From Escherichia coli (GTDB lineage: Bacteria > Pseudomonadota > Gammaproteobacteria > Enterobacterales > Enterobacteriaceae), in the NCBI RefSeq assembly GCF_002854065.1, contig NZ_CP024147.1: DNA of 64,000 nt; one strand, given 5' to 3'. Below, one piece after another: positions 12,606-15,202 of the stretch. The translations under genes and the position numbers were made by a program. Below the pieces are notes generated by a model that saw nothing but the letters and a program-made list of their open reading frames with translations, was not told the origin of the DNA and did no database searches. Numbering within the stretch: position 1 is the stretch's first letter; every line of letters begins with the position of its first letter.

Positions 12606-13181
12606 GTTGGAGTCATTACCGCTTATTCAACCATAATAAACAGTATGTATATCATAGGTTATTAATTGTGAGTTTTTTCGGTGTGTTATTTGTTTGTTTG
12701 ATGTTATGCTTTTGCGCCCCAAAAGGTTGTTTAGATGTATTTTATCAATTGATTTTCAATATCGTTTAATAAAGAAAAATTAAGCAAGCTGGATGTTGGT
12801 TTTTTGTTAATTGAATGGTTCTAATAATGTTTTTTTACTGTTGTTGAATGTGACTTGATAAGAAATGCAAGTAAAAATGATACTCTTTTTATTTTAAATT
12901 CAAACGGTTGACATATATATAGCAAGAGGTTTCAGGTGCGTTGTAGTGAGTTTATGTTAATAAAAAGTATAGTAAGCGTTGAAAAATGTAACTTTGAAAT
13001 ACGTTAGAATAAAAAACAATATACATATAATAATTTAATCTTAAATGAAATTTATTAAAATTTGCAAACTATAATTTTGTGTATAAAAATATAAATGCAC
13101 ATCATCCTGATTATGATTGTGTATTTAATTGGTTGTTATTTGACTGCTATCAACTTGTTTTAATTTTATGATAGGTGCAAG

Positions 13182-13931
13182 ATGGATTATGTTTGCTCCG
13201 TAGTTTTCATCTGTCAATCATTTGATTTAATTATAAACAGAAGAGTTATCTCGTTCAAAAAAAATTCATTGTTTATTGTAAGCGACAAAATTAGAAGGGA
13301 GTTACCAGTATGCCCCTCTAAACTAAGAATTGTTGATATAGATAAGAAAACATGTTTATCCTTTTTTATCGACGTGAATAATGAGCTGCCTGGCAAATTT
13401 ACTCTTGATAAGAATGGCTATATTGCTGAAGAGGAACCTCCATTATCGCTTGTTTTTTCTCTGTTTGAAGGGATTAAAATAGCAGACTCACACTCCCTTT
13501 GGTTAAAAGAAAGACTATGTATATCCTTACTTGCCATGTTCAAAAAACGCGAAAGTGTAAATTCATTTATACTAACAAATATAAATACATTTACCTGTAA
13601 AATTACTGGAATAATCAGTTTTAATATTGAGCGGCAATGGCATTTAAAAGATATTGCGGAATTGATTTATACGAGTGAAAGTTTAATAAAAAAAAGATTA
13701 AGGGATGAAGGAACGTCATTTACTGAAATATTGAGAGATACTAGGATGAGGTATGCAAAAAAACTCATAACTTCAAACTCTTATTCTATCAATGTCGTAG
13801 CCCAGAAATGTGGCTATAACAGTACTTCATATTTCATATGTGCATTTAAAGATTATTATGGTGTCACGCCATCTCATTATTTTGAGAAAATAATCGGCGT
13901 CACAGATGGAATAAACAAAACAATTGACTGA
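13182..13931 (+). CDS. appY: AraC-family transcriptional activator AppY (249 aa)
   Basis: 249 aa [21 protein letters not shown]...; C-terminal AraC HTH; very AT-rich context. Confidence 0.9.
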
Positions 13932-15202
13932 TAATGTTTATTACAAGTTGTCTACATGTTAATTATAATATTATACAGCGTTTTTTTTGATGTGATATTC
14001 TGGAACCATTAATTTGTAATTGGGTTGCTGTCGCCTATTTTATACATACTATAATTGATGGTTTTTTATGTGATTTAGTTAATAACCTTCTGGGTTTATT
14101 TTAAGGGTTAATTGTTACATTGAAATGGCTAGTTATTCCCCGGGGCGATTTTCACCTCGGGGAAATTTTAGTTGGCGTTCTTAAAATGTGTACTTAAGAC
14201 CAGCAGTAGTGATGAAGTTATAGTTTTCTATACCTGCTCCATTTTTGCTGTAGTCTGAAGTGTTATTATTGTGATCATAAAGTGAAGTATTACCTTTTTT
14301 ATTCGTAACCCGATTCCATGCGCCTTCAACATAAACTTTTGCGTTAGGTGTGACGTAATAACCTGCATTGACTGCAACAGAATAGTAATTTTGGTCTTTG
14401 ACCTTACTGCGATAAGTGATTCTTTTTCCCGGGTCATAGTGTTCATCGTTATCAGATGATTCCACCCAGCCGCTGTATTTAAATGTGCCACCGAGTTCAA
14501 AATCTTCATAACGATAACTTCCAGTCAAGCCAATGTAGGGCATTTTAAAACGTTGTTTGTAGCCGATTGCTCTTTCTCCATTCGGGAAGGAGCCGATATC
14601 ATCTCTGAATCCCTCCTCAGAACTGTAGATATAGGAACCACCTCTGGCTGTAAAGCTATAACGGCTTTCCTGATATCCGGCCATGAGTCCCAGGCGGTAA
14701 TTGGGTTCGTTGAGGAGCCAGCCTTTGATATTCAGATCAAATTCGTTGGCATAATTGAGTTGTGTATCAGGGTGTCTACTTTCATCCGTCCAGGTTCCGG
14801 GGTTACTGGAATCCATCCACTCCTGATCGACCATATTGCCACCTCGGCTGCCGAGAGTTGTCCAGCCAGCAGCCCCGATAGATATCTGGGGCATCAAATC
14901 CCAATTAATTGCACCTTTAATAATTGCAGCGTTATTGAATTTCCAGTCGAGTTGACTGACTTTTCGGCCTCCTTCTTCGGCTAGATAAACACGCTCTTTT
15001 GTTTTTCCGCTCAGAGTTCCAAGACTAATGTCCGCATTTATGTTGTCAGGAGTAAACGATAAAGTCTCGGTAGAAGCAAAAGAGCTGATCGCAATAGGGG
15101 TTGTCAGGACTTAGACTGGCCCCCTGAATCTCCAGACAACCAATATCACTTAAATAAGTGATAGTCTTAATACTAGTTTTTAGACTAGTCATTGGAGAAC
15201 AG

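Follow-up and report, generated by a model that had tools for sequence, protein, structure and literature searches.

The AT-rich appY interval of Escherichia coli prophage DLP12: very probably an H-NS-silenced phage-cargo module

The appY locus and its closest described relatives

The best-described counterpart of the locus analysed here is appY (b0564) of E. coli K-12 MG1655, a gene located in prophage DLP12 whose product affects acid resistance, biofilm and motility (PMC10057817). Chromosomal appY is strongly suppressed by H-NS in K-12 (PMC4469952), and H-NS repression is also attributed to Atlung 1996 and Purtov 2014, as these are cited in PMC7054387 and PMC4469952. The gene is in addition inhibited by DpiA and activated by ArcA (PMC7054387). 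AppY activates hya, appCBA and gadE and stabilises RpoS (PMC10057817, PMC7054387), and its regulon covers >200 genes, of which 11 are direct targets, gadE, gadY and nhaR among them (PMC10057817). That host physiology is wired to this prophage gene, as the first-pass annotation of the sequence had proposed, agrees with this regulon, published in 2023 (PMC10057817). Two further AraC-family regulators of prophages, PsrB and PatE from E. coli O157:H7, share with AppY an input into the acid-resistance (AR2) regulon of the host (PMC10057817); they are likened to AppY by published description, but are different proteins from different prophages.

The locus lies in a window of 64,000 nucleotides, the whole stretch of E. 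coli DNA that was analysed. It has the same gene order as MG1655, an identical AppY and the same AT-rich spacers, and the K-12 synteny tfaX-appY-ompT inside DLP12 is retained. Unlike MG1655, the present locus carries an IS1 at -561 relative to appY, an IS2 in ompT and six SNPs. We conclude that the interval is very probably an AT-rich, H-NS-silenced appY phage-cargo module of DLP12. The observation that led to this analysis is confirmed and its interpretation supported, and both are already in the published record. Composition statistics, gene identity, prophage borders, presence in intact phages, accessory distribution and the IS1 and IS2 insertions come directly from the present analysis. 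The features are as follows.

365 to 441, + strand: argU tRNA-Arg(tct), detected by ARAGORN; integration target of DLP12, the 3' part (394-443) being the attL copy.
11599 to 11852, + strand: tfaX tail-fibre-assembly remnant with an internal stop at 11782-11784, recognised from the ORF list and from K-12 and phage annotation.
11853 to 12620, + strand: IS1, 768 bp, exactly at the junction of tfaX and the AT-rich DNA.
12621 to 13181, + strand: tfaX-appY spacer, 561 bp, 25% GC; the promoter island described for appY, H-NS-bound in K-12.
13182 to 13931, + strand: appY, 249 aa, AraC/XylS-family activator with 100% protein identity to K-12 AppY.
13932 to 14180, no strand assigned: appY-ompT spacer, 31% GC; a second published H-NS-bound promoter island (PMC3661553 Table 1).
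14136 to 14164, no strand assigned: GC-rich hairpin, candidate terminator between the convergent appY and ompT.
14181 to 15111, - strand: 3' part of ompT, 931 bp, 43% GC, recognised by its translation; IS2 separates it from the first ~8 codons.
15112 to 16442, + strand: IS2, 1331 bp, inserted in ompT, recognised by its sequence and ORFs.
16892 to 16941, + strand: attR copy of the argU 3' end, 49/50 identical to 394-443; right border of DLP12.

Comparison with the MG1655 coding sequence demonstrated a match at 249/249 residues, and Pfam places the C-terminal AraC/XylS double helix-turn-helix at residues 159-235 (HTH_18, 4e-16; HTH_AraC, 1e-11; both above gathering scores). The identification of the gene as appY thus rests on a protein fully identical to K-12 AppY with a C-terminal AraC-type HTH. 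NCBIfam holds no AppY model. Its best matches are GadX (1e-29), YdeO (2e-29) and HilD (3e-28), which were rejected as equivalogs: GadX and YdeO reach 103 bits and HilD 99 bits, where the cut-offs are 500, 348 and 354, respectively. Falling far below every equivalog cut-off (103 bits vs 348-500), AppY is a member of none of these families. The nearest solved structures in the PDB are those of GadX (3mkl, 4e-23), CsvR, Rns and ToxT. AppY's best sequence relatives, namely GadX, YdeO, Rns/CsvR, ToxT and HilD/HilC, are small two-domain activators, from which AppY differs in having distinct targets and a phage location. The genes of regulators of the GadX, YdeO, Rns, CsvR, ToxT and HilD type usually lie on acquired, AT-rich DNA that H-NS controls.

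Base composition, promoter islands and H-NS

The island at 12621-14180 has a GC content of 0.293, compared with 0.510 for the 64-kb window. Sliding windows of 1560 bp across the whole 64 kb have a mean GC of 0.5105 (sd 0.0535), which places the island at z = -4.07. Equally low GC occurs in 0.2% of these windows, every one of which overlaps the appY island, and the minimum of 0.286 is found in the window starting at 12577; the island is the lowest-GC place in the 64 kb. The sliding-window check therefore upholds the claim of a GC content much lower than in the flanking DNA (29.3% vs 51.0%). On the left the island is flanked by IS1 (GC 0.533), and on the right by ompT (0.435). GC within the island is 0.253 in the tfaX-appY spacer (12621-13181), 0.316 in the appY ORF and 0.313 in the 3' spacer (13932-14180), and a 300-bp profile reaches its low of 0.22 at 12800-13099. 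The A/T-rich tract that had been noticed upstream of appY at 12650-13180 is also real, with a GC content of 0.250 (25%) and six A/T-only runs of at least 10 bases. The density of such runs is 8.3 per kb for the island vs 0.97 per kb for the window. If an AT content of 65% or more is required of each 100-bp segment, the two longest stretches in the window are 12552-13391 and 13462-14158. Low GC extends to all codon positions of appY (GC1/2/3 of 0.33/0.34/0.28), the GC3 of 0.28 comparing with 0.56-0.66 in the core genes ybcH, nfrA and cusA.

The limits first given for the island, 12621 and 14180, stand insofar as they enclose low-GC DNA, but the left one is not a natural compositional border, since 12621 is the first base after the inserted IS1. 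In a locus without IS1, the tfaX remnant would pass at its 3' end directly into the AT-rich DNA. The right limit, 14180, is the base adjoining the ompT stop codon. By blastn, appY-specific DNA stops at about 14110, and from 14111 onward the sequence is common to an ompT locus of O157:H7, which has an alpha/beta hydrolase gene (42% GC) in the appY slot. For most ompT-positive genomes, homology stops a few bases from the ompT stop codon. The hairpin at 14136-14164 has a folding energy of -24.1 kcal/mol (z -3.3) on the + strand and -20.4 kcal/mol (z -4.2) on the - strand; its U tail on the + strand is weak, and a terminator scan did not call it. We regard it as only a candidate terminator because of this weak U tail and because it lies in DNA shared with the appY-less ompT locus.

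H-NS binding and repression, start sites, regulators and regulon are taken from the literature on the K-12 locus, which is 99.6% identical. The K-12 intervals tfaX/appY (1016 bp), appY/ompT (323 bp) and ompT/envY (351 bp) are promoter islands for which each of the three K-12 ChIP studies considered shows H-NS binding, and nmpC/essD (354 bp) is likewise bound in all ChIP studies considered (PMC3661553 Table 1). In the order tfaX/appY, appY/ompT, ompT/envY and nmpC/essD, these four published islands correspond to GC troughs of the window at 12552-13391, 13462-14158, 16419-16730 and 4784-5246. Transcription of K-12 appY starts at -25, -81/-85 and -113, and antisense RNAs start at -145, -214 and -225 (PMC4469952). 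The published starts at -25, -81/-85 and -113/-114 map here to 13157, 13097-13101 and 13068-13069, and the antisense starts to 13037, 12968 and 12957, respectively. The published 423-bp test fragment spans 12867-13289 here, its two primers matching at 12867-12885 and 13272-13289.

The earlier suggestion of xenogeneic silencing named H-NS ChIP data from related strains as a check, and here the K-12 locus, bound in all studies considered (PMC3661553), speaks in its favour. The interval itself has the composition of an H-NS-silenced element, being at least 65% AT over hundreds of bp, accessory and phage-borne. We infer that H-NS silencing is probably also at work in the present strain. The basis for this strain-level reading is that the 561-bp spacer 3' of IS1 is intact and that its haplotype is common in nature and present in intact phages.

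Individual sequence motifs add little to this picture. For the 10-bp high-affinity H-NS consensus TCGATAAATT, the island holds no more sites than its composition predicts (3 at up to 2 mismatches vs 5.4 +/- 2.3 in shuffled sequences). This count is neutral with regard to H-NS binding, because AT content is the main driver of binding; published in-silico H-NS sites are also of low reliability (PMC7054387). In a simple hexamer scan, sigma-70-like sites were not in excess (9 vs 10.2 +/- 3.5 in dinucleotide shuffles). A count at the shuffle level suggests, as far as such simple tools can tell, that the promoter-island property is a by-product of AT richness. A search of 11500-17200 against Rfam (E <= 1) gave no match within the island; outside it, a sub-threshold IS009 match in tfaX and the att tRNA fragment were found. 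A "novel gene" in the appY spacer has been suggested (PMC4469952). The spacer contains ten ORFs of 20-34 aa, and a coding test has no power here since the locus is >99% conserved everywhere.

Prophage borders and phage cargo

DLP12 is bracketed by a 50-nt direct repeat derived from argU, with appY and ompT inside the bracket and envY outside. At attR, a weak tRNA match at 16845-16928 marks the att tRNA fragment, and envY (16985-17746), which lies beyond it, has a host-like GC3 of 0.59. The DLP12 region contains argU, intD, lysis genes, tfaD, ybcY, the tfaX remnant, IS1, appY and the IS2-split ompT; beyond ompT follow envY, ybcH, nfrAB and cus. The tfaX remnant, which at 11692-11848 repeats the 3' end of tfaD at 85% identity, is the last phage structural sequence ahead of the AT-rich module.

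When the phage collection was searched at the protein level, AppY matched at 100% identity in two complete genomes, those of Escherichia phage Kati (PP925833, 46 kb) and PhiR68_2 (PV340576, 49.7 kb, from ECOR13). A study on defence employs PhiR68.2 as a phage for infection. Both genomes have the order J-lom-stf-tfa-pin (invertase)-ynaE-ybcY-tfaX-appY-ompT, followed by the att region and int, and their islands are 99.5-99.7% identical to that of the window. In Kati, the sequences that form the attR side (16441-16941) and the attL side (394-1847) of the window are contiguous as ompT-attP-int. The phage island has 30% GC vs 53% for stf/tfa, with ompT at 43%. Kati and PhiR68_2 thus share with DLP12 the ybcY-tfaX-appY-ompT-att module, the upstream haplotype and the GC trough. 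Unlike DLP12, they are complete, retain in intact form the tail, invertase and ynaE genes that DLP12 has lost, and carry no IS elements at this place.

Among 5426 complete E. coli genomes, the appY island is present in 837 (those with an annotated appY), and 823 of these match the window at 99% identity or more; 3098 genomes of the same set have ompT. The module has the traits of a moron, namely a position in the non-essential region between tfa and attP/int, deviant GC and variable presence. Since two complete lambdoid phages share the tfaX-appY-ompT-attP-int arrangement, we conclude that appY is lambdoid phage cargo, a "moron". Both statements of the first-pass annotation on the origin of the gene are thereby substantiated: it is prophage-borne, as it lies within the 50-nt att bracket and its module sits between tail-fibre genes and attP/int in two phages, and it is horizontally acquired, judging from its presence in 837/5426 genomes vs 3098 for ompT and from low GC at all codon positions. 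Four in-silico methods also class appY as horizontally transferred (PMC7054387).

Two other accounts of the origin of this DNA were weighed. DLP12 is defective and heavily rearranged, and ompT, in its 3098 genomes, mostly occurs without appY and has varied neighbours, as might be expected if appY were a chromosomal islet beside a decayed prophage and "prophage-borne" a mere annotation convention. This is very improbable, given that appY and ompT are both inside the att repeat bracketing the prophage, that ompT-attP-int is joined in Kati, that the module is found in two complete phages of 46-50 kb, one of them in use as a live phage, and that host-like GC3 (0.59) appears in envY just beyond attR. 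The AT richness of the phage cargo could, rather than stemming from a low-GC donor, have arisen inside E. coli after acquisition, by local AT-biased mutation of silenced, RNA-polymerase-trapping DNA. Such 'promoter island evolution' is a hypothesis of the Ozoline laboratory with mutagenesis and evolution experiments behind it (PMC7054387, PMC3661553), and the spacer (25% GC) is richer in AT than the coding sequence (31.6%). For appY we consider it unlikely. GC is low even at the constrained codon positions 1 and 2 (0.33/0.34), and a diverged plasmid-borne paralogue of AppY (for example on pTB211, WP_072667068.1), which aligns over nearly its whole length at 64-69% identity, has a GC content of 0.324 (32%) and AT-rich flanks. 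This paralogue has an IS1 just upstream and is found on IncF/IncHI-type plasmids without ompT or phage context. Its equal GC suggests that the composition predates the divergence, and identity of at least 99% in 823 genomes and in two phages indicates that there is no ongoing rapid drift. From these comparisons we argue that the AT-rich composition is probably old and family-wide.

Insertion sequences, spacer haplotype and control of appY

IS1 is flanked by a 9-bp target duplication (gcttattca, 11844-11852 and 12621-12629), and its site is empty in K-12, Kati and PhiR68_2. The exact IS1/appY junction is absent from the 5426 complete E. coli genomes. The top matches that seemed to share the window's IS1 junction were rejected, as their IS1 copies are at other positions; IS1 is thus found at different positions near appY in other strains. 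IS2 has a 5-bp target duplication (ggact, 15107-15111 and 16443-16447), beyond which the 5' end of ompT continues at 16448-16470, and an identical IS2/ompT junction was found in none of the 5426 complete E. coli genomes. The insertion is predicted to inactivate ompT.

The island differs from MG1655 by 6 SNPs in 1559 bp (99.6% identity), four of them upstream of appY (12968, 13002, 13020 and 13146), one synonymous (13241) and one at 14066. The spacer exists in two haplotypes, and by the four upstream SNPs the window carries the type of both phages and not the K-12 type. At 13146 (-36), the window has TGCTAT in place of the K-12 TACTAT, the hexamer expected as the -10 element of the -25 start. 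Neither allele at this site is rare: over 61 bp, 346 genomes match the window fully, and 486 have one mismatch.

It is conceivable that K-12-type silencing has been lost in the present strain, with the IS1 at the spacer's distal edge, perhaps together with the G at -36, changing appY expression. Activation of the H-NS-silenced bgl operon by IS1 or IS5 is a model for such an effect of IS1. The IS1 at -561 has a fresh 9-bp duplication, its junction is unique among the 5426 genomes, IS1 recurs elsewhere around appY in other strains, and SNP 13146 changes TACTAT to TGCTAT at the putative -10 of the -25 start. However, the 561-bp spacer, all published starts and the 423-bp fragment are intact 3' of IS1, and the G at 13146 is a common natural allele that the phages also have, so a changed mode of silencing is unlikely. 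A specific version, in which IS1 alters H-NS spreading or local supercoiling and thereby appY expression and, with IS2 in ompT, would reflect adaptive remodelling in an IS-active lineage, seems slightly less likely again. Even if IS1 did alter the expression of appY, the interest would be modest.

The reading that we prefer, that of an H-NS-silenced phage-cargo module, would work as follows. The interval represents the appY cargo module of lambdoid DLP12, a promoter-bearing AT-rich accessory gene placed in the phage 'b region', where it lies between the genes for tail-fibre assembly and ompT/attP. Its foreign composition (25% GC upstream, 32% coding) would make the DNA a substrate for H-NS, and H-NS coating both AT-rich spacers would leave appY nearly silent in growing cells. 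Silencing would be relieved or overridden by ArcA in anaerobiosis, by RpoS in stationary phase and by DpiA/B, after which AppY would activate hya, appCBA, gadE, gadY and nhaR and stabilise RpoS.

The analysis has little significance beyond confirmation, to which it makes three modest additions: the att repeats and two intact, infectious-type phage genomes as direct evidence that appY-ompT is phage cargo; an AT richness that is probably older than the split from the plasmid paralogue; and two IS insertions specific to the present strain, one of which is predicted to inactivate ompT. The appY locus is a textbook example of a regulator delivered by a phage, one that H-NS silences in K-12 and probably also here, and that is wired into the anaerobic, stationary-phase and acid-stress responses of its host.

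Prophage borders and phage relatives

The 3' end of argU is present as a 50-nt direct repeat (window 394-443 and 16892-16941, 49/50 identical) that encloses the entire DLP12 prophage, and the two sides of this att repeat are joined as attP in phage Kati (PP925833; L005 ~11374-11423). Kati and phage PhiR68_2 (PV340576) are complete lambdoid genomes that look like intact DLP12 relatives, and their b-region cargo includes both appY and ompT. Our literature search found no paper that treats appY in an infectious phage; PhiR68.2 was encountered only as a phage-panel member in one preprint.

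The two tail-fibre-assembly genes tfaD and tfaX share a 157-nt direct repeat at their 3' ends (window 10643-10799 and 11692-11848, 85% identical). Such a repeat fits an invertible or duplicated tail-fibre cassette, which is intact in the phages, where a pin-type invertase lies between the two genes. Inside the tfaX remnant, window 11622-11825 (+) has a sub-threshold match to Rfam family IS009, a candidate small-RNA family (106.9 bits vs a gathering score of 117).

Additional AT-rich troughs occur within the prophage at window 4784-5246, 8042-8395 and 16419-16730. The first and last match the published H-NS-bound promoter islands nmpC/essD and ompT/envY, respectively, and the trough at 8042-8395 is located near 7835-8515.

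The ompT and appY cargo at other sites

E. coli O157:H7 TR01 carries a second locus running from a ybcY-tfa remnant to ompT, near minCDE, at a chromosomal site unlike that of DLP12. Its ompT is 99.5% identical to that of the window. IS66 and an alpha/beta hydrolase gene are found there in the position that appY has in DLP12. Evidently, this ompT-bearing cargo has passed from one lambdoid prophage to another. An AppY paralogue (64-69% identical, 32% GC) is encoded on plasmid pTB211 (L006 6001-6726), with an IS1 308 bp upstream, and also on approximately 20 other E. coli plasmids. These plasmids are of IncF/IncHI type, and most of them come from isolates of poultry or human origin.

Insertion sequences in ompT and beside appY

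IS2 (window 15112-16442), flanked by a 5-bp target duplication (ggact), interrupts ompT after approximately eight codons and leaves two pieces:

14181-15111, ompT piece on one side of IS2
16448-16470, ompT piece on the other side of IS2

With its gene split in this way, OmpT, an outer-membrane protease, almost certainly has no activity in this strain. Among 5426 complete E. coli genomes, none contains exactly this IS2/ompT junction.

IS1 (window 11853-12620), with a 9-bp target duplication, sits exactly where the tfaX remnant meets the AT-rich spacer upstream of appY, a junction with no second example among complete E. coli genomes. IS1 is also found near appY at differing positions in other-strain loci L001, L007 and H27, which suggests that the spacer is a recurrent IS1 target. 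In L007, emrE-to-tfaX is deleted and appY carries a frameshift, with IS1 located ~180 bp upstream of the gene; in H27, IS1 is within the AT-rich appY island.

Haplotypes of the appY upstream spacer

The spacer occurs as two common haplotypes, with variable sites at window 13146, 12968, 13002 and 13020. At 13146 (-36) the sequence is TGCTAT in the window and the phages vs TACTAT in K-12, and this hexamer is the expected -10 element for the published start at -25 (sigma-S, in vitro). Promoter data from K-12 may therefore not carry over to strains with the phage haplotype.
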